DNA of 64,000 nt from Actinomycetes bacterium (GTDB lineage: Bacteria; Actinomycetota; Actinomycetes; JAHEKZ01): the NCBI GenBank assembly GCA_024644345.1, contig JAHELE010000003.1, positions 1,288 through 65,287 of the forward strand, in the 5' to 3' direction. The translations under genes and the position numbers were made by a program. The notes beneath the pieces are model-generated. The model had not been told where the DNA came from and did not search any database. It saw only the letters and a program-made list of their open reading frames with translations. Position 1 is the stretch's first letter; each line of letters opens with the position of its first letter. Shown here in pieces: positions 9,396 to 35,897 of this stretch.

Positions 9396-9433
9396 GTGGT
9401 GAGCCTAGGGGAGGTCCAGGGCGGGGCCAGGCG

Positions 9434-16294: not shown

Positions 16295-16774
16295 GTGGAG
16301 TTCGACGTCTTCATCGAGATCCCGCAAGGACACCGCAACAAGTACGAGCTCGACAAGGAGTCCGGCCGGATCCGCCTGGACCGGATGCTCTTCACCTCGA
16401 CGCGGTACCCGTCCGACTACGGATTTATCGAGAACACGCTCGGCCTCGATGGTGACCCGCTCGACGCCCTTGTCCTGCTTGACGAGCCGACCTTCCCCGG
16501 CTGCGTGATCCTCTGCCGCGCCATCGGGATGTTCCGGATGACCGATGAAGCCGGGGGCGACGACAAGGTGATCTGCGTCCCGGCGCACGACCCGCGCAAG
16601 GAGCACCTCCGCGATATCCATCACATGCCCGAGTTCGACCGACTCGAGATCCAGCACTTCTTTGAGGTCTACAAAGACCTCGAACCTGGCAAGTCGGTGG
16701 AGGGCGCCACCTGGGAGGGTCGCGACGCGACCGAGCGAGAGATCCAGGCGTCCTTCAAGCGCTACGTCCCGTAG
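16295..16774 (+). CDS. ppa: Inorganic pyrophosphatase (family I)
   Basis: '[18 protein letters not shown]', '[21 protein letters not shown]'. A GTG start is preceded by a GAAGGGA RBS. The 401-aa ORF 15569..16774 is an over-extension. Confidence 0.9.
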
Positions 16775-16907
16775 GTCGCCGCAACGGACATGCCTTCGTC
16801 CACAGCGGATGTGGATGAAGCTGGGGATGCGCTGGGGACACACGCGGCAGGTGGTGTGGACGGCTCTGTGGATGAGAAAACCCGTTCAGATTCTTTGGGA
16901 AAACCCC

Positions 16908-19126: not shown

Positions 19127-20083
19127 TCAGGCAACTATCACGGCTTCGGCGACAGCCCGCACGTGGCGGACGTCTGTTCCACAGCATCCGCCGAGGATCG
19201 TGATGGTCGGCGCCACACGATGGACCTGCCACATCAGGTGGCCGAACTCCTCAATGTCACCGGGATCGAGGGGGTGGCCCTCCTCGGGCTCGACCAGGCC
19301 AGCGGGCGAAGCGTTGGCGCGTAGTCCTCTGATCCGTCGTCGCCATGGCGCGTCATCCCGCAGCATTCGAAGGATGTGGTGCGGGTGGGTGCAGTTGAGC
19401 ATGTAGTAGGCGGGCGCCACTACTGCCTCGCTGTCGGTGCGTTCGATCGCGTCGGCCACTGTCGTGCCGTCCGGCAGCCGTCCCTCGACGTCCGTGGTGA
19501 ACGAGATCACCGAAGGAACGTGTGCCCCGGCAGCCGCGTCGGCGATACCGATAGCCTCGGCGACGTAGTCGATCGTGAGCGCGGACACGATGTCGACTCC
19601 ACTGGCGGACAGGACGCCGACCTGCCAGGCGTGGTACTCGGCGGCCTCAGCCGCTGACATGACGGTGGCAATGTCATACCCGTCGGCGCGCGGCCCGACA
19701 TTTCCACTGATGACGAACGGAAAGCCCGCGCTCTGCTCGCGCAGCCCACGGAGAAGGTCGACGGCGTCGCGATTCAGCTCGGCGAGCCGTTCCAGGTCGT
19801 ACCCCAGTCGAGCACCCCAGTCGGGGCTGGCCCGCCAGGTGGGGGTCTCGAACACCACACCCATGCCACGCTCATTGGCCACGTCGAGGTGAGCCCGGAA
19901 ATAGTCCAGCAGCGTGGACCGCCCGTCGACCGACTCGAGCAGGGGAAACGGAGCGAAGTCCGGCAGGTCGAGCCCGTGGTTGTAGATCAGGTCGGTCTCG
20001 ATTCCGCTGTCGGTGAGAAACACCTCGTCGCGCATCTGGGGAAGACCCTTCGACGCCATGACGCCACCTCCGTCGCTCGACAT
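19127..20083 (-). CDS. Homocysteine S-methyltransferase family protein (MmuM/BHMT-like, zinc-dependent)
   Basis: C-terminal zinc motif 'ILGGCCGTDVRHV', central 'YYMLNCTHP', TIM-barrel HMT fold. Confidence 0.8.
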   Translation of the reverse strand: MSSDGGGVMASKGLPQMRDEVFLTDSGIETDLIYNHGLDLPDFAPFPLLESVDGRSTLLDYFRAHLDVANERGMGVVFETPTWRASPDWGARLGYDLERLAELNRDAVDLLRGLREQSAGFPFVISGNVGPRADGYDIATVMSAAEAAEYHAWQVGVLSASGVDIVSALTIDYVAEAIGIADAAAGAHVPSVISFTTDVEGRLPDGTTVADAIERTDSEAVVAPAYYMLNCTHPHHILRMLRDDAPWRRRIRGLRANASPAGLVEPEEGHPLDPGDIEEFGHLMWQVHRVAPTITILGGCCGTDVRHVRAVAEAVIVA

Positions 20084-20754: not shown

Positions 20755-22173
20755 CTAGTCCCAACTGAAGCCTGGAGGAGTGGGTGAGCAGAGCTCGACA
20801 GTTCGGTCGTGCATGGCCTGCTCCTTGTCCGCGTAGGCGGGACGGCCAGCAAGGTTGTTCAGCTCCAACGGATCGTGGACGTAGTCATAGAGCTCGACAC
20901 CGGCGTCACCCGACCAGTGCACATAGAGCCAGTTCTTCAGGCGTAGCCCGCAGTAGGCCGGCTGACCTGGGATGGCAATCGCCTCAAGAACCACATCGTT
21001 GCGGAACGGTCCGAGGACGGAGGTGCCTTCGATAGGCCATGTCGGCGTCACGTTGGCGGCATCGAGAATCGTGGCCCCGACGTCGGCGTTGGCCACCAGA
21101 CGGTCACGGTCGGCAACCGGGAACCGCTTGCCCCACTTCAGGATGAGCGGGAACTCGGTCGCCCACCGGTAGGGGTTGTACTTCTCGTCGAGACGGTGCT
21201 CCCCCCACATCACCCCTTGATCGGATGTGTAGATGAAGAGGGTGTTCGGCCGACGGTCACCGATCGCCTTCAGCACGCGTGCCACCGCCTCGTCGACAGC
21301 GCGCAAGGACTCACCGCTCTTGTCCTGAGCCCGCTTGATCCAGTCTCGGTCAACCCGTGGAAGATCCTGCATGAAGGCCGGCTTGTCGCTCATGTCCTTC
21401 TCGTTCACCGCCGGGTTGTCGTAGACCTTCTCGGGTTGCCACGTCCCCTTGTGTCGCGGCGCGGGCGTCCACGGCTCATGCGCGGCAAATGGCGTGAAGT
21501 AGAGGAAGAAGGGTTGGTCGTCCGGCGAGCTCTTGATGAAGCGCACCGCTCGATCAGCGAGCACGTCAGTGGAATAGGCCTTGGGCTTGCTGCCGAACTT
21601 CTCCGTCTCGTGCGTTCCTCGAATCTGATAGTCGTAGTAGCGGCCACCGCCCTGCCCGACATCAGACCAGAGAGCCCGGAAGACGTCCCACCCATCCGGC
21701 ACAAAGCCGTCTGGTGCCTGGTTCCACAGGTTCATGTACTTGCCGACCAGGCCGGTGCGGTACCCCGCTTCGTCCAGCGCGACGGCAATTGTCTTCTGCT
21801 CGTAGCCCGAGCCGTTGAATGCTGGCCAACCACCGTACGTCGGGTTGACGTTGTTGTAGACACCCGTGGTGTGGGCGAACTGCGCGGTCAGGAGGGACGA
21901 ACGAGCCGGACAACATGCGGACGTGGGACTGAACCCGACGTACTTCAGGCCCTTCTGGATGAGCTTCTTGCGCACCGTCGGCATCGTCTGGAACATGTTG
22001 CGACGCTGGTCGTCGGACATGATCACGACGATATTCGGTGGATCAGCAGCTTTGACGCCGGCAGCGGCCGGTGCCGGTAAGGTCGCAGATCCGCTCGGCG
22101 TGGCGACCCCCAGCCCTGATGCCAACACGGCGATGGCGCCGAGGGGAGCCAGGAATCCGGTCAATCTCCGCAT
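20755..22173 (-). CDS. Sulfatase (formylglycine-dependent, secreted)
   Basis: 'SPTSACCPARSSLLT' C-x-P-x-R motif and signal peptide MRRLTGFLAPLGAIAVLASG. ORF track starts at 22425, but the upstream 84 aa are Ser/Thr-rich junk. Confidence 0.8.
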   Translation of the reverse strand: MRRLTGFLAPLGAIAVLASGLGVATPSGSATLPAPAAAGVKAADPPNIVVIMSDDQRRNMFQTMPTVRKKLIQKGLKYVGFSPTSACCPARSSLLTAQFAHTTGVYNNVNPTYGGWPAFNGSGYEQKTIAVALDEAGYRTGLVGKYMNLWNQAPDGFVPDGWDVFRALWSDVGQGGGRYYDYQIRGTHETEKFGSKPKAYSTDVLADRAVRFIKSSPDDQPFFLYFTPFAAHEPWTPAPRHKGTWQPEKVYDNPAVNEKDMSDKPAFMQDLPRVDRDWIKRAQDKSGESLRAVDEAVARVLKAIGDRRPNTLFIYTSDQGVMWGEHRLDEKYNPYRWATEFPLILKWGKRFPVADRDRLVANADVGATILDAANVTPTWPIEGTSVLGPFRNDVVLEAIAIPGQPAYCGLRLKNWLYVHWSGDAGVELYDYVHDPLELNNLAGRPAYADKEQAMHDRTVELCSPTPPGFSWD

Positions 22174-22267: not shown

Positions 22268-23242
22268 GTGATCGATGCCCACAACCACCTCGGTCGATGG
22301 CTGTCTGCAGACGACGACTGGCTGGTCGACGACGTCGGCGAATTCATCGGAATGCTGGACCACGTTGGCGTCGACATGGTCGTGAACCTGGACGGACGCT
22401 GGGGTGCGGAGCTCGAAGCCAACATCGCTCGCTACGACGCGCGGCACCCTGGCCGCTTCCTGACCTTCTGTCACGTCGACTGGTCGGTTCTCAGCTCCGA
22501 CGACGACGAGCGTTCGATTGTCGACACCCTGTCGAGCCAGCTCGCGGCGTCAGCCGCTGCAGGAGCTCGCGGCGTGAAGGTGTGGAAAGACCTCGGCCTG
22601 CAGGTCCGCGGCGCGTCGGGTGAGTTGGTGATGCCCGACGACCCACGCGTCGCAGCCGTCCTCCAGGTGGCGGGCGAGCTCAATCTGCCGGTGCTCATTC
22701 ACACTGCTGACCCCGTTGCGTTCTTTGAACCGCTGACTCGGGCCAACGAGCGTTGGGACGAGTTGCAGGTGCACCCCGAGTGGTGGTTCGGGGGCTCGGG
22801 CATGCCGTCGTTCGGGTACCTCATGGACCGTCTCGACGGACTGCTGACCCGCTGCCCAGGCACGACCTTCATCGGTGCGCACGTCGGCTGCTGGGCCGAG
22901 GATCTCGACGCCGTCGGGCGGATGCTCGGCCGGCACGCCAACTGGACCATCGACATCGCGGGGCGTCTTGGCGAGCTGGGACGCACACCCGGGGACTTTC
23001 GCTCGCTGGTGGAGGACTTTCCCGACCGCGTCCTGTTCGGCACCGACTGTTTTCCACCGACGGCCGACGACTACGCCAGGCACCGGCACTTCATTGAGAC
23101 AACGGACACCGGCTTCGACTACTCGGGGGACCCCACCCCGCCCCAGGGGAACTGGACGATCGACGGCGCCGGCCTCGATGCCCGGCTGCTGCCCGGCCTC
23201 TACGACAACAATGCCCGCAGGATTCTCCGTCTTACTGATTGA
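22268..23242 (+). CDS. Amidohydrolase-2 family metal-dependent hydrolase (TIM barrel)
   Basis: N-terminal 'VIDAHNHLGRW' metal-binding HxH. A GTG start is preceded by GGAAGG/GGTAGGAA. ORF track start 21866 is an over-extension across the divergent sulfatase promoter. Confidence 0.65.
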   Translation: MIDAHNHLGRWLSADDDWLVDDVGEFIGMLDHVGVDMVVNLDGRWGAELEANIARYDARHPGRFLTFCHVDWSVLSSDDDERSIVDTLSSQLAASAAAGARGVKVWKDLGLQVRGASGELVMPDDPRVAAVLQVAGELNLPVLIHTADPVAFFEPLTRANERWDELQVHPEWWFGGSGMPSFGYLMDRLDGLLTRCPGTTFIGAHVGCWAEDLDAVGRMLGRHANWTIDIAGRLGELGRTPGDFRSLVEDFPDRVLFGTDCFPPTADDYARHRHFIETTDTGFDYSGDPTPPQGNWTIDGAGLDARLLPGLYDNNARRILRLTD

Positions 23243-23251
23243 CTGGTCAGT
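23242..23251. promoter_or_regulatory. Operator-like inverted repeat ACTGGTCAGT followed by TAGTTTTC, 23 nt upstream of the GcvT-like ATG
   Basis: Same motif, in inverted orientation, at 29082..29091 upstream of the Rieske oxygenase gene. Confidence 0.45.
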
Positions 23252-23273
23252 TAGTTTTCGCCAGGGTGGTGAC

Positions 23274-24359
23274 ATGACAGACGCCCCGGTCCGCTCCGTT
23301 CTGTACGACGTCCAAGACCGACAGGGAGGGATGTTCGACGACTTCGGTGGGTGGATGTGGACCCTCGACTTTGGCGACATCCTCGGCGAGTACGAGACGC
23401 TCCGCTCTGGTGCCGGCATGTGGGACGTGTACGCGCTCAACAAGTGGCTGGTGACCGGTCCCGATGCTGCGTCCGCCCTGCAGCGCGGCTTCACGAACAA
23501 TCTCGCCACCCAACAGGTGGGCCAGGTGCGCTACGGAGCATTCGTCGATGAGAACGGAATCCTTCTCGACGAGGGAACGGTCTATCGTCGCGCCGACGGC
23601 TCCTACTACGCGTTCACGAACACCGACACATTCGACGGCTTTGTTCGTGGTCACTCGCCAGATGCCGACGTATCCCTCGTCAACAAGCTGCACGACATGC
23701 CCCTTGTCTCTGTGCAGGGTCCACGTTCACGCGAGATCCTGCAGTCGCTCAGCGACTTCGACTTCTCGACGCTTGCGTACTTCCGGTTCGCTGAACCGGT
23801 CACCGTCGCGGGCATTGAGGTGTTCATCTCCAGGACGGGTTTCTCCGGTGAACTCGGCTACGAGCTCATCCCCGCGCGCGACGATGCTGAGCCTTTGTGG
23901 CTTGCCCTGGCCGATGCCGGCGTCCGGCCCGTTGGGTTCAACGCCATCGACATCGCGCGGATCGAGGCCGGGTTGATCGTCTTTGAGTACGAGTACGAAC
24001 CTGGTCTACTGACGCCGTTCGACCTCGGAATGGACCGCATGGTCAGCTTCGCCCCCGACATCGACTATGTGGGCAAGATCGCTCTGCAGAGGATTGCCGA
24101 GAACCCACCGCACCGCCTGAAGACACTTCGCCTGGAAGCTGGAGAGCTTCCGGAGGCGGGCTCGGAGGTCACCAAGGACGGGGCCAAGGTCGGAACGCTG
24201 ACCAGCCCAACGAACAGCCCCCGTTTCGGGCCCATCGCCTTGGCGATCCTCGACACGGCCGTCGCCGACAATGACGCCGTGCTGCAGGTGGTCGGTTCGA
24301 CGGTCACCGTGGCCGACCTCTCGATATTCGACCCGACGAAGGCTAAGCCGCGCGCCTGA
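23274..24359 (+). CDS. Aminomethyltransferase (GcvT/DmdA/DgcA folate-binding family)
   Basis: 361 aa; 'FSGELGYEL', 'YEPGLLTPFDLG', GcvT fold throughout. Confidence 0.8.
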   Translation: MTDAPVRSVLYDVQDRQGGMFDDFGGWMWTLDFGDILGEYETLRSGAGMWDVYALNKWLVTGPDAASALQRGFTNNLATQQVGQVRYGAFVDENGILLDEGTVYRRADGSYYAFTNTDTFDGFVRGHSPDADVSLVNKLHDMPLVSVQGPRSREILQSLSDFDFSTLAYFRFAEPVTVAGIEVFISRTGFSGELGYELIPARDDAEPLWLALADAGVRPVGFNAIDIARIEAGLIVFEYEYEPGLLTPFDLGMDRMVSFAPDIDYVGKIALQRIAENPPHRLKTLRLEAGELPEAGSEVTKDGAKVGTLTSPTNSPRFGPIALAILDTAVADNDAVLQVVGSTVTVADLSIFDPTKAKPRA

Positions 24360-24939
24360 CCGCACGACGTTGTCGGACCGTCATCCAGACCCCGGCGAGT
24401 GCGGCCCCTGATGTTCCGAGGAACTCGTCGAACAGAGTGTCTTCGTAGGCGGTGTCGAGCTCAGTGCCGTGCCGGATGAACGCGTACCACTCGCCGAGCT
24501 CCCACCCGATCGCCAGGATGGCTCCGATGCCCACCGTCAACCAGCCGAGGGCCCACGGCGGCAGAGTCGATGCCTGGGACAGGATGAGACCGGCGCCGGC
24601 GGCCAGCAGGAACCAGTTCACGAAATGGTTCGCGTCGTCCCACCAGGACACCGTGTCGTAGAGGTTCAGGGTGTTACCCGTGACGTCGATGAGGAACGGC
24701 GTCCAGATGAACGCGAATGCCCGCCACGGTGTCTCGGGGACGGGCTTTTGCCGACGGCCCCACGCCCAGTAGGCCACGGGGACGATGAGCATCATCAGCG
24801 GGTAGGCCAGCAACCGTGCGCCGAAGGCCTTGCCCTCGAACTGGTCGAGTCCCGGCACGAACGTCGCAACTCCCAGCTGCAGAACCGTGAGCCCGAAGAT
24901 CACCAAAGCAATCACGCGGCTCAGCCCGGCTCTCGTCAC
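24343..24939 (-). CDS. Hypothetical polytopic membrane protein
   Basis: 5-6 TM helices and no catalytic motif. Convergent with the GcvT-like gene, with a 17-nt overlap. Confidence 0.45.
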   Translation of the reverse strand: MTRAGLSRVIALVIFGLTVLQLGVATFVPGLDQFEGKAFGARLLAYPLMMLIVPVAYWAWGRRQKPVPETPWRAFAFIWTPFLIDVTGNTLNLYDTVSWWDDANHFVNWFLLAAGAGLILSQASTLPPWALGWLTVGIGAILAIGWELGEWYAFIRHGTELDTAYEDTLFDEFLGTSGAALAGVWMTVRQRRAVRRAA

Positions 24940-25021
24940 GTGGCACAGAGTAGGGGTGGCCAGACGAAGGCTTGTGCGTCGACATGCCTAGAGATCTGGC
25001 TAGGATCCGATCGGATGAGAG

Positions 25022-26038
25022 GTGGTGCCGTCGATGAGCGACGTCTTGCAGCAGCGTGACTTTCTGAAGGAGATTGACTTCACCAGGGACGAGCTGCAGC
25101 ACCTCATCGACCTCGCCGGAGAGCTCAAGACCGCCAAGCGAACCGGCACCGAGAACAAGCACCTGACCGGCCGCTCAATCGCCCTGATCTTCGAGAAGTC
25201 GTCGACCCGTACGCGCTGTGCCTTCGAAGTCGCCGCGTACGACCAGGGAGCTCATGTCACCTACCTCGACCCCTCGTCGTCGCAAATCGGCCACAAGGAG
25301 TCAGCGGCCGATACGGCCCGGGTGCTGTCTCGCATGTTCGACGCCATCGAGTTCCGGGGTAAGGCCCAGGCCACAGTCGAAGAGCTGGCCGAGTTCTCCG
25401 ATGTCCCGGTCTACAACGGGTTGACCGATGAGTGGCACCCCACACAGATGCTGGCTGACTTTCTCACCATGGAAGAGCACGCGTCGCACGCGACCACCCG
25501 GCCGAGCTTCTGCTTCCTCGGTGACGGACGATTCAACATGGGCCGCTCACTGCTTGTCATGGGGGCAATCATGGGATCCGACGTCCGGATCTGCGCGCCT
25601 CAGACTCTTTGGCCTGATGACGAAGTGCAGGCGATCGCCCGCGAGCACGCCGACCGATCGGGTGCTTCGGTCACCCTGACCGAGGACCCCGACGAAGGTC
25701 TGCGTGGGGTTGAGTTCGTACACACGGACGTCTGGGTGTCGATGGGCGAGCCGAAGGAGGTCTGGGCATCACGCGTCAAGGAGCTGATGCCGTACCAGGT
25801 GAACGCGGTCGCCCTGGCAAAGACAGGTAACGCCAACGCGAAGTTCATGCACTGCTTACCTGCATTTCACGATGAGCGCACCGCGGTGGGACGCGAAGTA
25901 TCCGCACTGACCGGGGTCACGGGTGGCCTCGAGGTCACCGACGAGGTATTCGCCTCGCCGGCCAACATCGCCTTCGACCAGGCGGAGAACCGTCTACACA
26001 CGATCAAGGCCCTCATGGTCGCGACTCTGGGCCGCTGA
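25022..26038 (+). CDS. Ornithine carbamoyltransferase, closest to catabolic ArcB-type
   Basis: '[17 protein letters not shown]', 'HCLPAFH', and N-terminus collinear with ArcB ('[27 protein letters not shown]'). The start is probably MSDVLQQ at about 25034. Confidence 0.88.
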
Positions 26039-27454
26039 TCAGTCAGGCCGTGCCGGAACTGCCGCACTGGGCGCGCTGACGACAAAGACCCCGGCCCGCT
26101 CCGCGTGTGCGGCCCAGCCCAGGAGGTCCTCGTCGCCGTTGGGGCGTCCGATCAGCTGCACCCCCATGTGCAGCCCTTCCTCGTTGGTGCCAGCGGGCAT
26201 AGAGAGGGCAGGCAGCCCAGCGAACGTTGCGAGCGTCGTCACCTCCATCCATCGGTGGTAGGTGTCCATGGCGACTCCGTTGACCGAAGCCGGCCAGTGC
26301 AGGGATGCAGGGAAGGGCCAGCACTGGGCGGTGGGCATGGCCAAGAAATCAAAGCGCCCAAGCAGAGTCACGAGCGACTGACGCACACCGTCGCGAACGA
26401 GCTTCGCGTGCGCCAGCTGTCGGCTTGTCAGAGAGCGAAATCCGGCGACCTCCCACTGGGCCTCTGGCTTCATGCCGTCAATCGTGGATCCATCGAACTC
26501 GGCTGCAAGCGATCCGCCGACCTCGTGGTGGCGAATGGCCAGCCATGCCGGCCACAGCTGAGAAGCGCCGGTGAAGGCGCCCCGGGTCGGCAGATCGGCG
26601 CTGTCCACGCGACCGCACCACGCCTTCAGGGTGCTCGCACAGGTGTCGAGGATCCCGCCCTCGAAGGGCAGGTATCCACCAAGATCTCCCAGCCAACCGA
26701 TTCGCGGACTGGCGTCAGGTGGTGGGAGACCCAGCACCGAGATTCCTTTCTGTCCTGCCATGGTCGCGAGTAACGCATGGAGATCGCCAACGCTGCGAGC
26801 GATCGGCCCGTCCACCCCGCTGCCATGCGCGCCGGTGGCGTCCTGCACACCTGGGACAACGCCGACTGACGGACGCAGTCCCAGCACGCCGTTCCAGCCC
26901 GGAGGGTTGCGCAGCGACCCCATGAAGTCACTGCCGTCCGCCACAGGGGTCATTCCGGTCGCTACCGAGACCGCAGCTCCGCCGCTGCTACCTCCGGCAG
27001 TCAGTGAAGGATCGACGACGTTGCCCGTCGTCGGACCGATGGCGTTGTAGGTGTGCGACCCAAGGCCGAACTCAGGAGTGTTCGTCTTGCCGATGAAGAC
27101 AACGCCAGCGGCCCGTAGATGCGCCACGAACGGGTCGTCGACGTTCGCCACCGGCGACTCAGCCACCGGGCGGAAGCCCAAGGTGGTCGGCAGTCCCTCT
27201 ACGTGCGACAGATCCTTCACCGCGTGCGGAAGCCCGTGCATCCAACCGCGCCACATCCCGTGATCCAGCTCATCATCACGTTCAGCCGCGTCCGCCAGGA
27301 CCACATCACGAGGGCGTCGACTGCTCAAGGCGTGGTACGAAACGTCCAGTAGCTCGATTCGGTCGAGATGTGCGCGCACCACCTCGACACACGAGATCTC
27401 TCGCTGTTGTATCGCTCGACTCAGCTGCAACGCAGAATGGTCGAAGGCGGGCAT
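26039..27454 (-). CDS. Amidase (amidase-signature family)
   Basis: 'GGSSGGAAVSVATG' plus the 'GKTNTPEFG' Ser-cisSer-Lys triad context. Confidence 0.85.
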   Translation of the reverse strand: MPAFDHSALQLSRAIQQREISCVEVVRAHLDRIELLDVSYHALSSRRPRDVVLADAAERDDELDHGMWRGWMHGLPHAVKDLSHVEGLPTTLGFRPVAESPVANVDDPFVAHLRAAGVVFIGKTNTPEFGLGSHTYNAIGPTTGNVVDPSLTAGGSSGGAAVSVATGMTPVADGSDFMGSLRNPPGWNGVLGLRPSVGVVPGVQDATGAHGSGVDGPIARSVGDLHALLATMAGQKGISVLGLPPPDASPRIGWLGDLGGYLPFEGGILDTCASTLKAWCGRVDSADLPTRGAFTGASQLWPAWLAIRHHEVGGSLAAEFDGSTIDGMKPEAQWEVAGFRSLTSRQLAHAKLVRDGVRQSLVTLLGRFDFLAMPTAQCWPFPASLHWPASVNGVAMDTYHRWMEVTTLATFAGLPALSMPAGTNEEGLHMGVQLIGRPNGDEDLLGWAAHAERAGVFVVSAPSAAVPARPD

Positions 27455-28938
27455 CAGCTCTCTCGTTCCACGAGCTCGTTCCGCAGCGCGGCCTTCTCCA
27501 CCTTGCCCATCACGTTGCGCGGCAGGCTCTTCATCACCACGATTTCCTTTGGCACCTGGTACCCGGCTAGCCGCGACCGTGCTGCCTCACGCAGCACCTC
27601 GGGCTCGAGCCGAATCTCGGGGTTGGCGACAACGACGGCCACGACGCGCTCTCCGAAGTCCGGATCCGGCAGTCCCACCACGGCCGACTCCACCACCCCG
27701 GGCAACGAGTCAAGGACACTCTCGACATCGGTCGGGTAGACGTTCAGACCCCCCGTGATGACAAGGTCCTTCGAGCGACCCACCAGCTCGAGGTATCCAT
27801 CATCATCGAACCGGCCCAGATCGCCGGTACGGAACCACCCGTCTGTCGTGAACGACTCGTCCGCGAGCTCCGGTCGCCGCCAGTAGCCGGAGAAGACGTT
27901 CGGACCGCGTACCTGCACATCGCCCACCTGCCCCGCCATTACAGGTCGATCAGCTTCGTCCACGGTTCGGATTGACACCCCGGGAAGCGGGGGACCGACA
28001 GTCCCAGGACGCCGTGGGCCGGCAAGGGGGTTGGAGGCCAACATCGAGGTCTCGGTCATTCCGTAGCGTTCGAGGATCTCAGCGCCTGTCCGTGCGGTGA
28101 ACTCAGCATGCGTTGCCTGCGTCATCGGTGCCGAACCAGAGACGAAGAGCCGCACCCTGGCGCAAGCGGCGGCGGTGAATCTCTCGTCAGTGAGCAACCG
28201 CGTGTAGTGCGTCGGTACCCCCATCACCACCGAGCAGGACGGCAGTGCGGCCAAGATCTCATCAATGTCGAAGGTGGGTAAGAGCACCATGGACGCACCG
28301 CTGGTCAGAACGCAGTGCGCTGCCACGAAGAGACCGTGAGTGTGAAACAGCGGAAGGATATGCAGGAGGACGTCCGAAGGAGTGAATCGCCATGCGTCGA
28401 CCAGGGTTTGAGCGTTGGCTGCCAGATTGCCGTGACTCAGGAGTGCACCCTTCGGTCGCCCTGTGGTGCCTGATGTGTAGAGCAGAGCCGCTCCATCGTC
28501 GGCCGTCACCGCTGGTAGCTCGTCAGAGCCTTCACTCATGATGTCTCGGAGCGAACCGTGGCCCATCGCGTCCATCGTGAGCAGCCGCCAGGGCCCACCT
28601 AGTGGTGAACGCCCCGGCGAGCGGATGACCAGCGACGGCTCGGCGTCGGCCAGCAGTGCGTCCACCTCCGCGTCGGCGTAGCTGGGGTTCAGCGGAAGCT
28701 GAATCGCACCACAGCGAAGCAGCGCAAGGTGCAGGACCACCGTGGCCACCGACTTGTCCACTTGGTATGCCACTCGATCACCGATGCCGATGCCAGACGC
28801 CACGATGGCCCGTGCCAGCCGCGTTGACGCCTCGTCGAGCTGTCCGTAGGTGAGGCCGGCACCCATCGGAGTGCGGATGGCCGGCGCGTGGCGGCTCGCC
28901 GTGACATCAGCCAGGAGCCCCAGCAAGGTACGACTCAC
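27454..28938 (-). CDS. AMP-dependent synthetase/ligase (acyl-CoA synthetase family)
   Basis: '[12 protein letters not shown]', 'TGDLGRFDDDGYLELVGRSKD'. A 1-nt stop/start overlap with the amidase gene implies an operon. Confidence 0.85.
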   Translation of the reverse strand: MSRTLLGLLADVTASRHAPAIRTPMGAGLTYGQLDEASTRLARAIVASGIGIGDRVAYQVDKSVATVVLHLALLRCGAIQLPLNPSYADAEVDALLADAEPSLVIRSPGRSPLGGPWRLLTMDAMGHGSLRDIMSEGSDELPAVTADDGAALLYTSGTTGRPKGALLSHGNLAANAQTLVDAWRFTPSDVLLHILPLFHTHGLFVAAHCVLTSGASMVLLPTFDIDEILAALPSCSVVMGVPTHYTRLLTDERFTAAACARVRLFVSGSAPMTQATHAEFTARTGAEILERYGMTETSMLASNPLAGPRRPGTVGPPLPGVSIRTVDEADRPVMAGQVGDVQVRGPNVFSGYWRRPELADESFTTDGWFRTGDLGRFDDDGYLELVGRSKDLVITGGLNVYPTDVESVLDSLPGVVESAVVGLPDPDFGERVVAVVVANPEIRLEPEVLREAARSRLAGYQVPKEIVVMKSLPRNVMGKVEKAALRNELVERES

Positions 28939-29081
28939 TTGCTCACCCGATATCTGCTGCCACGTGCACGCTCGATGCCCACGCTGAGCCGTGGGCTTCA
29001 GACCCTATTGGAGCGGGTCGATATGCCGTAGAGATGCTTCCCTACCCGCCTTGGCTCGGGTTATCCTTGGCTCGCTGACTG

Positions 29082-29091
29082 ACTGACCAGT
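29082..29091. promoter_or_regulatory. Operator-like inverted repeat ACTGACCAGT followed by CACTTTTC, 21 nt upstream of the Rieske oxygenase ATG
   Basis: Reverse complement of the site at 23242..23251, with the same downstream TTTTC and the same distance to the start codon. Confidence 0.45.
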
Positions 29092-29111
29092 CACTTTTCA
29101 ACGGAGGATCG

Positions 29112-30212
29112 ATGACCACCCAGGTTCGCCACACGCTGCCGGCCACCCACTACTACTCGCCTGAGCAGTACGCCGTGGAGCAGGAGTGCCTGTGGTACGA
29201 GCAGTGGGTGTTTGCGGGGCGGGCCGACCAGGTGGCCGACCCGGGCCAGTTCCTCACCGTCGACATCGCCGGCCAGGGCGTGCTGATCACCCGCAACAGC
29301 GAAGGTGCGCTTCGGGCGTTCTACAACGTGTGCAGTCACCGTGGCGCCGTGCTCTGCGACGACACCCGAGGCGAAACCAAAGCAGTGTTCCAGTGTCCGT
29401 ACCACGCGTGGTGCTATGACTTCGACGGCGTGCTCGTCGCCACCCCCCGGGTCGACAAGGACGAGGTTGACCGATCGGTCCTCGGACTCAAGCCCGTGCA
29501 CGTCGACGATTGGCAGGGTTTCCTTTTCGTCAACCTGAGCCGCGAAACGCCGACGCCACTGCGCGACTCCCTAGACGGTCACTACGACTCACCGCTGCGC
29601 TTCGAGAAGCACGAGCTCGACCGCCTCGCCACCGTTCACCGCACCGAGTCAGTCGTAGCGGCCAACTGGAAGATTCTGATCGAGAACTACAACGAGTGTC
29701 TGCACTGCCCCATCGTCCACCCCGAGCTGGTGGAGGTCGTTCCGACCTACAAGAAGGGCATGACCGGCGACCGAAGCCGAGAGGACGGCGGCGTCGCGCT
29801 AATTACTGGTGGGACGAGCTACTCCGACGACCCTCGTGCTCGCCGGGCCGTTCTTCCCGGCATGAACGACGAGATGGCCCACAGCATCTACGGCAGTCAG
29901 GTGTTCCCCAACATGTTCCTCGACATCGCCGGCAGCAATGTCGTCGCGACCAGGCTCGTTCCGGAGGGCCCCCTCCAGACCCGCGTCCTCACCGAGTACC
30001 TCTTCATGCCCGAAGACATCGCTGAGCCGGACTTCGACCACCAGCCGGTCGTCGACTTCTGCGAGCTGGTTGCCGGGCAGGACTACGCCGTATCCGAACG
30101 CGTCCAGCGCGGTATCACCTCACGCGGGTTCGCACACGGCGTCTACCCCGAGAAGGACGACTACGTCCACCAGTTCAACGAGTACTACCGCAAGGTCATG
30201 AACGAGGCCTGA
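29112..30212 (+). CDS. Rieske [2Fe-2S] non-heme iron oxygenase alpha subunit (GbcA/CntA/Stc2-like)
   Basis: Rieske motif 'CSHRGAVLC..CPYHAWCYDF' and mononuclear Fe site 'NECLHCPIVHPE'. No adjacent reductase gene. Confidence 0.85.
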   Translation: MTTQVRHTLPATHYYSPEQYAVEQECLWYEQWVFAGRADQVADPGQFLTVDIAGQGVLITRNSEGALRAFYNVCSHRGAVLCDDTRGETKAVFQCPYHAWCYDFDGVLVATPRVDKDEVDRSVLGLKPVHVDDWQGFLFVNLSRETPTPLRDSLDGHYDSPLRFEKHELDRLATVHRTESVVAANWKILIENYNECLHCPIVHPELVEVVPTYKKGMTGDRSREDGGVALITGGTSYSDDPRARRAVLPGMNDEMAHSIYGSQVFPNMFLDIAGSNVVATRLVPEGPLQTRVLTEYLFMPEDIAEPDFDHQPVVDFCELVAGQDYAVSERVQRGITSRGFAHGVYPEKDDYVHQFNEYYRKVMNEA

Positions 30213-30239: not shown

Positions 30240-30818
30240 GTGATGGTGTTCACTAGTTCGATGGCGTCGTCCCGCACAGTTCACCGCAGCCTGCTGGATG
30301 CCATGGACAACGCATGGGAGCCCGTATCCGCTCGGTTGTCAGGTATGAGTGAGAGCGAGTACGCGTGGCAGCCAGTCGCCGAGTGCTGGACCGTTCGCAC
30401 CCACGGTGGCCATTGGCTCGCAGACTGGGCGGATCCGGACCCTGATCCCGCACCCGTGACGACGATTGCCTGGCGTACCTGGCATGTTGCGGTCGATTCC
30501 CTCGACAGCTACTCCGAGAGACTGTTCGGCGTACGGGGTACCGGCCTCACGGGAACGAACTGGGTGGGGACCTGGCGCGAGGCCGAGCCACTTATGGCGG
30601 CCGCGTTCGACGTCTACCGCAGAGGTGTTGCTGGGTGGACCGACAAGACGCTGCTGGCTCCTCTGGGTGCACAGTGGGGTCCGTTCGCACACCACACTCA
30701 TTTGGATCTTGCGTTGCACGCTATCCGCGAGCTGATCCACCACTTGGCCGAGATTGCGCTCCTGCGTGACCTCTATCGAGCGATGCTCGACCAGCGCGGA
30801 AGTGACTTTCTGCCCTGA
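30240..30818 (+). CDS. DinB/YfiT-like (DinB_2) superfamily protein
   Basis: His-rich 4-helix pattern ('HGGHW', 'WHVAVDS', 'HHTHLDLALHAIRELIHH'). 27 nt after the Rieske gene, so probably co-transcribed. Confidence 0.55.
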   Translation: MMVFTSSMASSRTVHRSLLDAMDNAWEPVSARLSGMSESEYAWQPVAECWTVRTHGGHWLADWADPDPDPAPVTTIAWRTWHVAVDSLDSYSERLFGVRGTGLTGTNWVGTWREAEPLMAAAFDVYRRGVAGWTDKTLLAPLGAQWGPFAHHTHLDLALHAIRELIHHLAEIALLRDLYRAMLDQRGSDFLP

Positions 30819-30926: not shown

Positions 30927-31898
30927 ATGACATTCATGCGTACAAAAACATCCCTCTTCGCGGTTGCCGCTGTAGCGGCGCTCGCAGTCGGGGGTACATC
31001 CGCAATCGCGGCCGAGGAGGAAACCCTCGGCAACAACCTCTCGATGCCGGTCGTCTTCGCAGAAGGCTACGGAATCACCGGGATGGAAACTCAGCCCTAC
31101 ACCACGTACCCCACCCTGACAGAGGACGACGGGCTCCGGCCACGCACAGAGGCCGAAGCGCTTCCGTTCCTGGAGGACGGAACACCCGCCCCCTATCTGG
31201 ACATGGCTGACGCGTACATGCTGGACGGAACCACGTACTACACCCAGAAGGGGCCGAGCACCTGGAAGGCTTACGCGAAGGACGGCGCCACCAACAAGAA
31301 GGTCGCTTCCCTCGTGTACTTCGGTGACAACCTCACGGGCCACCAGTGGACAACGAACGTCAAGATCATCCACCTGGAGATGGGGCTGCAGAAGGAGATG
31401 ACCGATCCGCAGCTCACCTACCCGATGACGTCCCTAGAGGGCACCAAGATGAACGAGGTGTTCGGGACGACCGGCGAGCCCGCAACGGGTACGACCGCCA
31501 AGGTCTACACGCCCATGGGCAAGCTGGTTATCCAGAAGCTTGACAAGAACCACAAGCCCATCGGCAAGATCTTTAAGCAAGCCATCTACCAAAGCTTCTC
31601 GACAGATGGCAGCGGGCAGTTCGCCACTGAGGTCACTGGATCCGGCACGCTTTCCTACGGCTACAACTGGTTCCTCAGCGACACCGGCGACTTTGCCAAG
31701 GCCGGTTGGTGGAGGATCACTTTCAAGATCAAGGCAGAAGGCACGTGGAACGACGGCGTCGAAGACGTGACCGTCGACCGCAACGCCAAGATCGTGGGCA
31801 AGATCGTTAGCACTGAGACGGAAGGCGAAGCACCGCTCTTCCCGATCAAGATCGCTGACAAGTACACCGCCTACGTGGACATCCAGATCATCAAGTAG
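30927..31898 (+). CDS. Secreted protein of unknown function (Lys-rich, low GC)
   Basis: Sec signal MTFMRTKTSLFAVAAVAALAVGGTSAIAAE preceded by a GGAGGG RBS. About 53% GC versus about 70% in flanking DNA. Confidence 0.5.
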   Translation: MTFMRTKTSLFAVAAVAALAVGGTSAIAAEEETLGNNLSMPVVFAEGYGITGMETQPYTTYPTLTEDDGLRPRTEAEALPFLEDGTPAPYLDMADAYMLDGTTYYTQKGPSTWKAYAKDGATNKKVASLVYFGDNLTGHQWTTNVKIIHLEMGLQKEMTDPQLTYPMTSLEGTKMNEVFGTTGEPATGTTAKVYTPMGKLVIQKLDKNHKPIGKIFKQAIYQSFSTDGSGQFATEVTGSGTLSYGYNWFLSDTGDFAKAGWWRITFKIKAEGTWNDGVEDVTVDRNAKIVGKIVSTETEGEAPLFPIKIADKYTAYVDIQIIK

Positions 31899-32009
31899 TT
31901 CACACGCGGCTTCACGGAGAGGGCTGTCCCCTCGGTTCTCTCCGTGGAGCCCGCCGAACGGCACTAGTCGACTCACGCAGACCCGACCGAAGATGCCGAG
32001 TCAGCGCTG

Positions 32010-33428
32010 ATGAGGGAGGGGCATCTCATGAAACACCGCAGACAGCATCTTCTTCTGCTCGCAGCCGCGGCAGTGGCGATCGGAGTTGCTCCAGCGTGGA
32101 GCCCGATGGCCATCGCTGATGAGGCTGCGGCACCTGACGACACATCCACCAGCGCCGAGATCACCGAGCCATCGCTCGCTACGGATCCGGGCGAAGCCGC
32201 TGACCGGGCCGAGCCGGCCGACGCGACGATACCCGCTGAACGGTCCACATCAGACTCCTCGCCCGCTGACGACGTCACCGATCCCGTGGCCGAGGACCCT
32301 GTTCCGGGCAAAGAGTCCGCTACGGCAGAAGAGCCCGGCGATGAAGGAGGGCACGAAGGTGGCGGCCACGGCGAAGGTGGCACCCTGCCCGATGGAGTCA
32401 CTGTCACCGTCGACGGCCGCAACATCCAGGCCACCGACCCTGAAGGCAGCCTGCCGAAGATCGCCAGCTGCACCTTCGACGTCGTCGCCAGTGGTCTCAC
32501 CACTGAGCCACCCGACACAGTGGGCATCCGGATCGTGGCCTGGCCCCCGACAGCTCCCGGCGAAAGCCGCGTCAAGCTCGTTGACATCACCGAGACTTCA
32601 GTTGACGGCGCGTGGGCCGGCGGATTCCCTCTCGATGAAGCGGTCCAGCAGTTCGACCGTAAGGGAAACGGCTACCACATGCGGTTCGAGTTCCTGATCA
32701 ATGACGACGTCGTCGCCATGAAGATGTACTGGCTCGGCTGCGGCGAACCTCAGACCGGAAACCCCCGCCGAATGCTCTTCGATGTGCAGTGGTACGACGC
32801 CGATGGGACCCTGCTCACCACCGCTCTCGACAGCGCACTTCCTGCAGGTTGGCGTCAAGGCTTCGTGCTCGACGCTGCAGGCGAACGCGGCACGGTGGAA
32901 TGCACCTACCCACCCGGCTCAGACCTGCTGAGCTGCCAGTACGTGAACCCGGGGCACGGAGATCAGCCCGGTCTCGTGCTGCCAGGCAAACCTGGGACCA
33001 GCTACACGGTGGACGTGACTGGTGAGCCCCGTCGCTGGGTTGTGGACGACGAGACAGTCGGGAGCTTCCTGGCTGACGACACCTGCCCAAAGGGCGGCGG
33101 CCACGACGACGGACACGAGGAGACGACGGCAGCAGTCACCCGAGCTGAGGGTGAGGACGGAGACGGCGAGCATGCGGCGTGCGTCCACACCGTCGCGATC
33201 AACCAGCTGGCCGTCGTTACCCCGCCAGACGAGGGCAACGATGGGAACGCCAATCCTCCCGACACCGGAGGTGGAGGCAATGCCAACCCAACCGAAGGTA
33301 ACGCTGCTGCGCTTCCAACTACCGGCGCCAACTCGCTCCCCCTCATCCCGGCAGGACTGGTCCTGCTGGCCCTTGGAGGAGTTCTGATCGTTAGCAGCAG
33401 GCCACCCCGTCCGGTCCTGAACAGGTAG
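32010..33428 (+). CDS. LPXTG-anchored surface protein of unknown function
   Basis: N-terminal signal peptide, acidic Pro-rich linker, and C-terminal 'LPTTG' + hydrophobic helix + 'RPPRPVLNR' sortase sorting signal. Confidence 0.6.
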   Translation: MREGHLMKHRRQHLLLLAAAAVAIGVAPAWSPMAIADEAAAPDDTSTSAEITEPSLATDPGEAADRAEPADATIPAERSTSDSSPADDVTDPVAEDPVPGKESATAEEPGDEGGHEGGGHGEGGTLPDGVTVTVDGRNIQATDPEGSLPKIASCTFDVVASGLTTEPPDTVGIRIVAWPPTAPGESRVKLVDITETSVDGAWAGGFPLDEAVQQFDRKGNGYHMRFEFLINDDVVAMKMYWLGCGEPQTGNPRRMLFDVQWYDADGTLLTTALDSALPAGWRQGFVLDAAGERGTVECTYPPGSDLLSCQYVNPGHGDQPGLVLPGKPGTSYTVDVTGEPRRWVVDDETVGSFLADDTCPKGGGHDDGHEETTAAVTRAEGEDGDGEHAACVHTVAINQLAVVTPPDEGNDGNANPPDTGGGGNANPTEGNAAALPTTGANSLPLIPAGLVLLALGGVLIVSSRPPRPVLNR

Positions 33429-33434
33429 CCGGAT

Positions 33435-34442
33435 CTAACCGGTGAAGCCCAGGTGGATGTGGTCCTGATGTGTGTCGTCGGAGAAGAACGACGCACCTGA
33501 TCCGTCAAGGTCAACAGGACCACCCACCTGGTATGCGCCACCTTCTCGGGCAGCGCGCATGAAGTTGGCTACGGCCTTGCTGTAGCCGGACGAGATGATC
33601 GAACGACCGTCGAGCGCCCAGATGTCCACGGCCAGCCCCTCCGTGTGATTGCTCGTCCGGTCGGTGCCGAACACCCGCAGCGGGTGACCGGAGCGAAGAA
33701 CACTGACATCCAGCCGGTGACGCCGGGCCAGCGACACCAGCGCTTGGAGCACCGAGCCGTCGATCACCCCCGCCCGAACATCGCGTCTCGCTGCGAACGG
33801 GAGGACGATGCGATCGTTGCCCAGCACCTGCTTCGCCTCACGTGAGATCTCCCCGGATGGTCGTCCTGGACGGGCGGGACGGACTGCCGTCACCGCCCAC
33901 TGCGGCTCGTCCGCCACCAACCGGACGTCTAGCGTTGTTCCCCTTCTCCTCACGCGCCCGTCCACCCCCAGCCGCCACTGGTCAAGAACCACGAGCACGG
34001 AGGCACTCCCAGCAAGGATTCCGCCGTACTGGGCCGTCACCACCTGAGCCGCGGATGCCGGATCGTCGGAGACAACCGGGGCAAGGTCGGCGGCGAGTTC
34101 CGGATCATTGCCCGAGGCTCGGACGCGGGTCCGCGCAGCGGCTATTCCGCCATCGCCTACGTCCCACACGGCCGCGGCCTCGACGAGTCGAACGGCGGCG
34201 AGCTTCACGTTTGGTGAGACCTCTCGTGGCGATGGCCGCCATATCGTGGTTCTGGGTAAGGCGGCTGTCGTCGACTCCGACGGAGAAGGAGTGCCACCAG
34301 TCGCCGGAGCCATCGAGGTCGCGGCTCCTCCCGGCTGAGATTGTGCGCGATCTGTGCAGCCCGCCAGACCAATGGCAGCCCCGGCGGCCAGGGTAGAACG
34401 CAACATGCTGCGCCGGCTGATGCTCACCGACTCATCATCCAA
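33435..34442 (-). CDS. Peptidase M15 (VanY-like D-Ala-D-Ala carboxypeptidase) Tat lipoprotein
   Basis: Tat motif 'SRRSMLRS' with 'LAGC' lipobox, M15 zinc motifs 'SNHTEGLAVDI' and C-terminal 'HQDHIHLGF'. Confidence 0.65.
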   Translation of the reverse strand: MDDESVSISRRSMLRSTLAAGAAIGLAGCTDRAQSQPGGAATSMAPATGGTPSPSESTTAALPRTTIWRPSPREVSPNVKLAAVRLVEAAAVWDVGDGGIAAARTRVRASGNDPELAADLAPVVSDDPASAAQVVTAQYGGILAGSASVLVVLDQWRLGVDGRVRRRGTTLDVRLVADEPQWAVTAVRPARPGRPSGEISREAKQVLGNDRIVLPFAARRDVRAGVIDGSVLQALVSLARRHRLDVSVLRSGHPLRVFGTDRTSNHTEGLAVDIWALDGRSIISSGYSKAVANFMRAAREGGAYQVGGPVDLDGSGASFFSDDTHQDHIHLGFTG

Positions 34443-34478: not shown

Positions 34479-35897
34479 ATGCTGATACGGTCCGAAGCGT
34501 CGAGGAAAGGACCGACGGTGACCCGTGTGCGGCAGGCGCTGGCCCTCACGGTTCTGGGGTTGGGCGCGTCGGGTTTGTTGGTGGGTACTGCTCCCGGCGC
34601 CTCCGCACCACATGAGTTCTCAGCACTAGTCCATGCACGAGCGACATTTGACCCCGGCGCAAAGATCGACCATGTGGTGGTCATCGTGAGGGAGAACCAC
34701 TCATTCAACTCGGTTCTCGGCCCCTTCTGCGCCAGGGCCCACAGATGCGTGGGCGACGACATCGGAACCCGGGAGCCCACCTCGACTGGATCAGCCCCCC
34801 TCGCGAAGGCCCCAGATATCGTGCCCAACACCGATCACTCACACTGGGCGCAAATGAGGGCGTGGAACAACGGGGCCAACGACCACTGGAATCTGATCGG
34901 GGGATGCTCCGCCTCGACAGGCTATGCCTGCTACCAGGCCTACGAGCCGCAACAAGTTCCCAACGCCACTGCACTCGCGACTACCTATGCCCTAAGCGAC
35001 AACACGTTCACCTGCCAACGACAGGCCAGCTGGAGTGACAAGTTGACCTGGGGCTCGGCCTGCGACCAGAACGGCTTCCTGGGTAGCAACCCTCAGCCCT
35101 ACCCGGGGGTTCCTGACAACTCGGGATGGGGCTGCACATCGAACAAGGGCACACCTTGGAGGGGTGTTCGCGGAGACCCCTTCACGAAGGAACCGTCCTG
35201 CATCCCGGACTACTCGACGGGACTCGAGTTTGGCGGCGCGTTCAGGGCAACGCCGGTTCCCGAACAGGTGTCCCTATTCGAGAACTGTGATCTCGCACCC
35301 AGATGCACCTGGGTCGACTACAACACCGCCAAGGTGTGGAGCCCGACTGAGATGCGTGCCTATACCGTCTTCAACCACTCCAGCAGACGAACACCGACCC
35401 AGTTCCTTGCCGATGCCGGGAACGGAAAGCTGCCGAGCATTTCCTTTCTGACCTCGTCGTTGACCAAGCCCAGTGACTCGCAGCACAACGGTGACTCCAT
35501 GCTGATCGGGGACAACGCACTCCAGCGTGAGGTGTCGGCGGTCATGAATGGCCCCGACTGGGGCTCCACTGCCATCTTCATCACGTGGGACGACTGTGGC
35601 TGTCAGTACGACCCCGTGGCTCCTAACCGCGTGCCCATGATCATCGTCAGCCCCTACGCCAAGGCGGGCTACACCGACTCGCGCAAGACCAATTTCGCTG
35701 GAGTTGTTCGGTTCATCGAGGAGTCGTTCGGACTGCCCAGCATGAACAGGCATGATCGCCGAAAGTACGACTACCGACGCTCATTCGACTTCTCACAGCA
35801 ACCACTTGCCGGTATCGCCATGAAGAGCAGCCACGTTCCGCGGGCGTCCCGCCTTGCCACCTTGAAGAACCCCGCAAACGACCTCGACGACTCCTAG
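34479..35897 (+). CDS. Phosphoesterase family protein (non-haemolytic phospholipase C / AcpA acid phosphatase family), secreted
   Basis: Signal peptide, then 'IDHVVVIVRENHSFNSVLG', the hallmark of the PLC/AcpA phosphoesterase family. Confidence 0.75.
   Translation: MLIRSEASRKGPTVTRVRQALALTVLGLGASGLLVGTAPGASAPHEFSALVHARATFDPGAKIDHVVVIVRENHSFNSVLGPFCARAHRCVGDDIGTREPTSTGSAPLAKAPDIVPNTDHSHWAQMRAWNNGANDHWNLIGGCSASTGYACYQAYEPQQVPNATALATTYALSDNTFTCQRQASWSDKLTWGSACDQNGFLGSNPQPYPGVPDNSGWGCTSNKGTPWRGVRGDPFTKEPSCIPDYSTGLEFGGAFRATPVPEQVSLFENCDLAPRCTWVDYNTAKVWSPTEMRAYTVFNHSSRRTPTQFLADAGNGKLPSISFLTSSLTKPSDSQHNGDSMLIGDNALQREVSAVMNGPDWGSTAIFITWDDCGCQYDPVAPNRVPMIIVSPYAKAGYTDSRKTNFAGVVRFIEESFGLPSMNRHDRRKYDYRRSFDFSQQPLAGIAMKSSHVPRASRLATLKNPANDLDDS

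Follow-up and report, generated by a model that had tools for sequence, protein, structure and literature searches.

A conserved palindromic element upstream of Rieske oxygenase and GcvT-like genes of Actinomycetes as candidate operator of a TetR-family repressor

BetI is a TetR-type DNA-binding repressor (PMC2628434, citing Rkenes et al. 1996). It responds to choline and represses the bet genes of Escherichia coli and other Proteobacteria. In Pseudomonas, the glycine betaine monooxygenase GbcAB is under the control of the AraC-type activator GbdR (PMC12093977; bioRxiv 10.1101/2023.12.12.567942). In classical TetR-family pairs (TetR/tetO, QacR and others), the operators are palindromes of about 14–20 bp placed over the -35 box, the -10 box or the transcription start, and the regulators are autoregulated. 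In this study, a stretch of 64,000 nucleotides of an Actinomycetes bacterium (assembly GCA_024644345.1, contig JAHELE010000003.1), referred to as the window, was analysed with regard to an imperfect palindrome present in two copies, one upstream of the gene of a GcvT-like aminomethyltransferase (site 1) and the other upstream of the gene of a Rieske non-haem-iron oxygenase (site 2).

Both copies are most probably operators of a single TetR-family repressor, dimeric and with a C-terminal domain of the BetI type, whose gene would lie outside the window; we give this reading a probability of about 0.75. Mechanistically, it would be a standard TetR-type repressor–operator system, with BetI as its apparent nearest named relative. 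As in BetI, the regulators linked to the site in other genera combine the domains TetR_N and TetR_C_6, the regulator gene carries its own operator and the controlled genes belong to quaternary-amine metabolism. On the other hand, in place of betA, betB or betT the targets comprise genes for a Rieske oxygenase and a GcvT-like protein, the regulator that was scored (that of L024) is not a BetI equivalog, the hosts are Actinomycetes, and the operator reads CTGACTGACTG-NN-CAGTCA. Additionally, the regulator gene appears to be unlinked to its targets in the lineage of the window, which is mildly unusual.

The comparison with TetR/tetO and QacR gives a similar result. Length and palindromic form of the operator, its predicted placement over core promoter elements, the autoregulation suggested in other genera and a presumed de-repression by a ligand are shared, but the operator described here is asymmetric, with an extra conserved (A)CTGAC on one side, and one of its copies is located in an intercistronic gap and overlaps the upstream stop codon. 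With the GbcAB/GbdR system it shares a target from among the Rieske-type oxygenases of the quaternary-amine group, whereas the proposed regulator is of the TetR and not of the AraC family, would repress and not activate, and the partner gene encodes a stand-alone GcvT-like protein; an adjacent gene for a GbcB-like reductase was not detected. In the literature that could be searched, the exact operator strings matched nothing but an unrelated virus paper, and searches on BetI operators and on Rieske, TetR and betaine found, within an incomplete coverage of the literature, no paper describing this regulon.

The two copies had been described in a first-pass annotation of this DNA as the 18-mers ACTGGTCAGTTAGTTTTC (23242–23259) and ACTGACCAGTCACTTTTC (29082–29099), and they stand exactly at these positions. 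The first base of the former is the last base of the TGA stop codon (23240–23242) of the Amidohydro_2 gene, and the gap of 31 bp between this stop and the ATG (23274) of the GcvT-like gene was likewise confirmed. Distances of 11–13 nt from motif to start codon had been given; they are 14 nt to the ATG of the GcvT-like gene and 12 nt to that of the Rieske gene (29112), and the G+C content is 64–66% and not 70%. The element is longer than the motif first proposed, and the extension is leftward (5') and not 3': it is an imperfect palindrome of about 20 bp, for which alignment gave the consensus (C)ACTGAYTGAYTG-NN-CAGTYA, also written (A)CTGAYTGAYTG-NN-CAGTYA. The TTTTC tail, which the first-pass annotation included in the motif, is not kept in the Rieske orthologues, where CTTTCA, CTTGAC, CTTGAG or CTCGCG stands in its place.

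Site 1 has the imperfect palindromic core TGACTG-GT-CAGTTA and covers the last codons and the stop of the Amidohydro_2 gene, and site 2 holds a perfect 14-bp palindrome, TGACTGACCAGTCA, at 29080–29093. They are the only two matches of the position weight matrix (PWM) of the element in the 64-kb window (Table 1). When the sites were anchored on the 14-bp palindrome alone, information of 1.0–1.5 bits per position persisted in the left flank ACTGAC but was nearly absent from the right flank, so that the operator is genuinely asymmetric. The half-site columns (core TGACTG-NN-CAGTCA plus the left extension) are at least 90% conserved over 79 distinct sites, in accordance with the conserved half-sites of the palindromic operators, about 14–20 bp long, of the TetR family. 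The left arm is a (CTGA)3 repeat, which at site 2 (29075–29086) has TGA in all three frames and at site 1 (23235–23246) in two. One of the left-arm TGAs of site 1 is the stop codon of the Amidohydro_2 gene, and it lies inside the predicted -35 box TTGACT.

Counts within the window were of limited value. The 10-mer ACTGNNCAGT occurs twice against 0.91 expected, and at least two copies were obtained in 25 of 100 shuffles, which is not significant; the 14-bp palindrome with up to two mismatches is at chance level; and the full 18-mer is rare (0.15 expected) but was defined post hoc from the same two copies. It is the conservation in orthologous and distant loci, and not the statistics of the window, that marks the two copies as non-random.

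One genome per species was scanned, which gave 80 loci encoding relatives of the Rieske protein (loci are cited below by L numbers). The orthologous genes of relatives, where a shared regulon should leave the same motif, do carry it: the site was found upstream of 11/11 Rieske orthologues (L001–L011, 71–96% identity, in uncultured Actinomycetes known from metagenome-assembled genomes, MAGs), as well as in L085, and upstream of every GcvT-like orthologue with upstream DNA present (about 15 contigs). Site 1 is nearly unchanged at the GcvT-like orthologues of L001–L004, L007, L011, L081–L084, L087, L089, L091 and L101. A metagenome scan with the GcvT-like protein contributed nine further upstream regions in new contexts, and the gene preceding the GcvT site varies with the locus, being Amidohydro_2, SNase (L082, L091) or a divergent sulfatase (L084). 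More distant Rieske homologues of Nocardioides and Marmoricola are also preceded by the site.

In 1.52 Mb of fetched loci, a PWM score of at least 12 was reached by 97 matches, compared with 0 in shuffled sequence. Strong sites directly precede a Rieske, TetR or GcvT-like gene in 79 of 85 cases, and most of the other six also lie before such genes, which the automatic labelling had overlooked. In L008, L010 and L088, the Rieske gene and the GcvT-like gene are direct neighbours; a single site precedes the pair in the first two, and the upstream DNA of L088 is beyond the contig. A GcvT-like gene is present within 10 kb of the Rieske gene in 9/11 orthologous loci; no more distant locus has one at this range. 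These data support the proposal that both genes share one cis-element, which behaves as the operator of one repressor, and form a common regulon, as the first-pass annotation had suggested. Occasionally, the sites adjoin genes of an FAD monooxygenase or of an NDP-forming acyl-CoA synthetase, the latter transcribed divergently from the TetR gene. In L017, a copy of the operator (13035–13054) is situated between divergent genes of a beta-keto acid cleavage enzyme (BKACE) and a 4HBT_2 thioesterase, and a second copy (16758–16776) lies upstream of a TetR gene whose product is only 32% identical to the Nocardioides type. The pair of BKACE and 4HBT_2 thioesterase is typical of carnitine breakdown, which hints that in some lineages catabolic genes of the carnitine type are in the same regulon.

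The assignment to the TetR family, one of those named in the first-pass annotation, is based on 31 loci of Nocardioides, Marmoricola and related MAGs, in which a gene of about 220 aa with TetR_N and TetR_C_6 (BetI-type) domains adjoins the Rieske gene. A strong site is located just upstream of this TetR gene in 30–31 of the 31 loci, and 25 of the 31 promoters have the form TTGACG-17-TAGCAT-(1–4 nt)-CTGACTGA. The hexamers are those of a near-consensus promoter with a predicted start within the operator, which suggests the usual signature of an autoregulated repressor. The same site is carried by divergent TetR genes with products of only 32–35% identity (L017, L052). The TetR of L024 scored 51.5 bits against the 201.3 of the BetI model TIGR03384 and 42.9 against the 118 of NF001978, and matched only the Pfam BetI-type C-terminal domain TetR_C_6, so it is not a BetI equivalog. 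A homologue search returned 528 close relatives, all of them named generically, and the nearest solved structures have been deposited only as generic transcriptional or TetR-family regulators.

Promoters were located by conserved TANNNT or ANNNT hexamers, and all transcription starts are predictions. TANNNT is present at most 22 nt upstream of the site at 44/80 sites, compared with 0.9% of random positions, whereas site and start codon are separated by 1 to about 147 nt, depending on the locus. The position of the site thus appears to be fixed with respect to the promoter hexamers and not to the start codons, and the link with the ribosome-binding region that had been suggested is not maintained. 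At the Rieske gene of the window, the predicted -10 box TATCCT lies 7 nt before the CTGA of site 2, which would place the transcription start at the left edge of the operator, with a leader running on to GGAGG at 29103–29107; a sequence GGTAYNNT precedes the site by 2–9 nt in the window as well as in each of the 11 orthologous loci. The Rieske promoters of 12 Nocardioides-type loci have the leaderless form (g)TGACA-18-TACAGT-6-ATG with the site in the spacer and the -10 box, so that the site would not be transcribed there.

The promoter predicted for the GcvT-like gene is more compact, with TTGACT as the -35 box inside site 1 and, after a spacer of 17 nt, CAGGGT as the -10 box close to the start codon. 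The same pattern was read at 14/14 tabulated GcvT sites, as TTGACT (TTGACC or TTGGCC in two), 17–18 nt and CA(G/A)(G/A)GT or AAGTGT, and by inspection it fits L011 too. The distance from hexamer to ATG is 6 nt in nine loci including the window. In L082, L083, L089 and L091, the distance between hexamer and operator is kept and the ATG lies 19–20 nt further on, behind a separate GGAGGTGG Shine–Dalgarno sequence. Since the hexamer spacing is kept despite the moved ATG, CAGGGT is taken as an ANNNT-type -10 box and the TTGACT within the operator as its -35 box, and the GcvT-like mRNA of the window is probably leaderless or near-leaderless. A promoter embedded in the operator would also explain the conserved GTTTTCGCC, as promoter spacer, and the fixed spacing to the ATG at site 1. 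The GcvT site of L084 is in an intergenic region divergent from the sulfatase gene, and with no co-directional gene upstream a promoter must exist there; a model in which site 1 acts only as a roadblock was downgraded because L084 has the same promoter-like geometry.

Both sites would therefore overlap core promoter elements or the start, as TetR-family operators do, although this overlap is deduced from sequence only. A complete operator and promoter compressed into a 31-bp intercistronic gap would be mildly unusual. In L082 (1674–1727), L083, L089 and L091, the hexamer CAAGGT and the operator are kept and about 13 extra nt with the strong GGAGGTGG have been gained, which may represent a natural switch of the same promoter between leaderless and leadered forms.

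Several points weigh against the operator of a TetR-family repressor. No TetR, GntR or IclR gene was found in the 64-kb window, either in tblastn searches that used the linked TetR and six TetR proteins as queries or by Pfam analysis of about 35 open reading frames (ORFs), and no transcription-factor gene of any kind was detected in the window; likewise, no TetR gene was present in the fetched flanks of L001–L011 or in the paralogous Rieske loci of the same MAGs. As no TetR is linked in the lineage of the window, the regulator is assigned by extrapolation from other genera, on the identity of the operator. The TetR homologues are uncharacterised everywhere, so the proposed ligand is a guess. 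The PWM behind the 97 matches was trained on the loci that it scored, and these had been retrieved via Rieske or GcvT genes; matrix and loci having the same source, the internal control is given by the ±10-kb flanks and not by a whole genome. An E. coli-style promoter scan was empty at both sites; at the Rieske promoter, the lack of a call is due to the absence of a good -35 box. A terminator scan found nothing at either site. Finally, the -10 box CAGGGT of the GcvT-like gene is weak and doubles as a Shine–Dalgarno-like sequence.

The absence of a TetR gene linked to the sites in the clade of the window would also agree with operators of a regulator of another family or of a global factor, with the TetR genes elsewhere being its targets and not its binders. 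The paralogous Rieske loci of the same MAGs, which have a related but distinct palindrome and are also without an adjacent regulator, point in the same direction. However, this explanation is unlikely, as a strong site is found just before the TetR gene in 30–31/31 TetR-adjacent loci, as a rule downstream of the -10 box and ahead of the start codon, with an exact fit to TTGACG-17-TAGCAT-operator in 25 loci, which is the classic signature of autoregulation, and the site is kept by TetRs of only 32–35% identity. Half-sites of 6 bp spaced by 2 bp are moreover a typical architecture of TetR operators.

A shared RNA element had been proposed as well, and the motif might act in RNA, as a hairpin of the 5' untranslated or intercistronic region, a riboswitch-like leader or the target of a small RNA or a protein controlling translation. 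Site 2 would indeed make up the first 20 nt of the predicted leader transcript, and both 20-mers fold into small hairpins (-5.0 and -6.6 kcal/mol, z -2.1 and -3.2). However, the two hairpins differ in register, their stability does not exceed that of shuffled sequences once the flanks are included (z about -0.5), the central 2-nt spacer cannot form a loop, and no Rfam match was obtained even at E values up to 1. No covariation was detected, with 93.9% of the cells paired against 93.4% in shuffled alignments and a double change in 4/474 cells. In the GcvT promoters and the leaderless Nocardioides-type promoters, transcription is predicted to begin only downstream of the site, and over all loci the distance from site to start codon varies from 1 to 147 nt. 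Neither the covarying structure nor the fixed transcript position of a cis-regulatory RNA was thus observed, and this explanation is very improbable; the site would be a DNA operator and not an RNA element.

That the copies are non-functional, as products of chance, remnants of a duplication or rearrangement, ends of a mobile element or a three-frame stop run, is the least credible explanation and is contradicted by the comparative data, for although the 10-mer alone is no rarer than chance, the 5.8-kb block between the copies is arranged differently in L008, L010 and L088, and the (CTGA)3 repeat gives TGA in all three frames, the site is kept upstream of the same gene families in many independent assemblies and genera while the flanks diverge, has 0 matches in shuffled controls and stands at a fixed distance from the promoter hexamers.

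Under repression by a TetR-family protein, a dimer bound at site 2 would cover the predicted start and the early leader and block initiation or promoter escape. At site 1, the bound repressor would cover the -35 box and most of the spacer, so that RNA polymerase would be occluded, and it could also hinder read-through from the Amidohydro_2 gene. Release of the repressor by an inducer would turn on the Rieske and GcvT-like genes together. The inducer would presumably be a quaternary or N-methylated amine attacked by the oxygenase, or its product.

The enzymes of the two genes were compared with curated families and solved structures. The best NCBIfam match of the Rieske protein is GbcA (NF058607), with 188.7 bits against a cutoff of 670 and over residues 4–213 only, so that it does not qualify as a GbcA equivalog. 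Its closest solved structures are 3vca, 4qup, 3n0q and the oxygenase subunit of carnitine monooxygenase (6y8j). The Protein Data Bank entry 3vca, which we take to be the stachydrine demethylase Stc2, presumably acts on quaternary or N-methyl amines; it and the carnitine monooxygenase CntA (6y8j) are among the matches with E values of about 1e-40 to 1e-38, a likeness of the window enzyme to Stc2 and CntA by sequence similarity alone. The Rieske enzyme thus appears to be related to N-demethylating and quaternary-amine oxygenases. The GcvT-like protein is below the cutoff of every NCBIfam model matched (GcvT models, trimethylamine N-oxide demethylase, DmdA and others), with 161.8 against 235.85 bits for the GcvT model TIGR00528 and 211.8 against 300 bits for NF001567; as the Pfam domain GCV_T is present, it is designated GcvT-like and not a bona fide T-protein. 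Its closest solved structures are the T-proteins 1yx2 and 1woo, and it plausibly passes a released one-carbon (C1) unit to tetrahydrofolate. An exact-sequence look-up of the two proteins of the window matched no record.

A fuller picture can be offered only tentatively. The regulator would be an uncharacterised BetI-like TetR sensor of an undescribed Actinomycetes regulon, which controls an N-demethylation module of an Stc2/GbcA/CntA-like Rieske oxygenase and a stand-alone GcvT-like protein; the latter might trap the released formaldehyde on tetrahydrofolate, and its gene might be expressed from an operator-embedded leaderless promoter in the 31-bp gap overlapping the upstream stop codon.

Table 1. 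Genes, candidate operators and predicted promoter elements of the window, with the palindrome of paralogous loci in the last row. Genes were assigned with Pfam and NCBIfam.
Feature	Position	Strand	Basis or remark
Homocysteine S-methyltransferase family	19127–20083	-	Pfam/NCBIfam
Sulfatase	20755–22164	-	Pfam/NCBIfam
Amidohydro_2	~22316–23242 (start approximate)	+	Pfam; stop codon within site 1
Putative operator site 1, ACTGATTGACTGGTCAGTTA	23234–23253	+	Sequence read and best PWM match in window, score 37
Predicted GcvT-like -35 box TTGACT	23239–23244	+	Inside site 1; sequence inference
Predicted GcvT-like -10 box CAGGGT	23262–23267	+	6 nt before ATG 23274; leaderless-type; sequence inference
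GcvT-like aminomethyltransferase, 361 aa, putative target of site 1	23274–24359	+	Pfam GCV_T + GCV_T_C
Conserved membrane protein, 190 aa	24343–24915	-	Hydrophobic, no Pfam match
Ornithine carbamoyltransferase (OTC)	25022–26038	+	Pfam/NCBIfam
Amidase	26039–27454	-	NCBIfam PRK07486, 484.3 vs cutoff 465
Malonyl-CoA-synthase-like ligase	27454–28938	-	NCBIfam PRK07514, 646.6 vs cutoff 558
Predicted Rieske -10 box TATCCT	29062–29067	+	7 nt before CTGA of site 2
Putative operator site 2, GCTGACTGACTGACCAGTCA	29074–29093	+	Upstream of Rieske gene; PWM score 35
Rieske non-haem-iron oxygenase alpha subunit, 366 aa, putative target of site 2	29112–30212	+	Pfam Rieske + Ring_hydroxyl_A
DinB_2 family	30240–30818	+	Pfam; 27 nt downstream of Rieske gene
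Lys-rich secreted protein	30927–31898		No Pfam match
Surface protein, LPTTG sortase-like motif and C-terminal anchor	32010/32106–33428		No Pfam match
Secreted or lipoprotein-like protein	33435–34442	-	No Pfam match
Phosphoesterase (phospholipase C-like)	34479–35897		Adjoins Eco57I / N6_Mtase-type gene
Eco57I / N6_Mtase-type DNA methyltransferase	35905–37248	-	
Palindrome CAGTTCACTGAATGGCCATTCAGTGAACTG (other loci)	L026:2038; L029:9925; L032:9926; L038:9896–9925; L042:9945		

The genes around the two sites are shown in Table 1. The PWM scan found no operator site upstream of the Amidohydro_2 gene of the window. The ligase and amidase genes, which suggest a pathway of the malonamate/malonate type, form an operon transcribed divergently from the Rieske gene, with the start of the ligase gene 135 nt from site 2. 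A divergent promoter shared by the two units had been assumed, and this arrangement is restricted to the window, L001 and L006, the only loci in which the ligase adjoins the Rieske gene; in the other loci an additional gene intervenes or the operon is lacking, as in L085, where it is missing between OTC and Rieske. The ligase–amidase operon is at most a candidate member of the regulon. The DinB_2 gene is probably co-transcribed with the Rieske gene; it follows it in L002 and L011 also and is absent in L001, L003 and L004.

Two candidates for a regulator gene in the window were rejected: a weak tblastn match at 8874–9077 corresponds to a pterin-binding (FolP-like) gene, and the 190-aa ORF at 24343–24915 (-) to the conserved membrane protein. 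The gene of the latter shares 17 nt with the 3' end of the GcvT-like gene, and its product is 73–89% identical in the orthologous loci; an ORF of 196 aa on the + strand (24469–25059), conserved only to 43–61%, is its antisense shadow. The three consecutive genes at 30927–34442 are well conserved, have no Pfam match and look unrelated to the regulon. Housekeeping genes (pterin-binding FolP-like, GTP cyclohydrolase I, phosphoribosyltransferase and thymidylate kinase) are located at 8526–10045 (-) and 42030–42659 (-), and with such genes on both flanks the catabolic block of about 17–35 kb belongs to a core part of the chromosome.

Paralogous Rieske genes (about 51% identity) of the same MAGs as the orthologues of the window clade are associated with a related but distinct perfect palindrome of 26 bp, CAGTTCACTGAATGGCCATTCAGTGAACTG, which may be the operator of a second, paralogous regulator. 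In L038, the only locus in which this was read, it is followed by a -10-like box TAGTCT, and no regulator gene was found within about 5 kb of this paralogous Rieske locus.

The general understanding of TetR-type regulation is unchanged by these data, which describe an ordinary kind of bacterial gene regulation. They provide a testable operator sequence and a predicted regulon in a widespread, mostly uncultured group of soil and freshwater Actinomycetes, with regulators annotated only as 'TetR/AcrR family'. Once its ligand is known, the operator–repressor pair could serve as a small-molecule sensor. Additionally, the shared element joins a quaternary-amine-type Rieske oxygenase and a GcvT-like protein into a single functional unit, and suggests a way in which these bacteria might deal with the C1 unit set free when osmolyte-type compounds, for example betaines, carnitine or choline derivatives, are N-demethylated.

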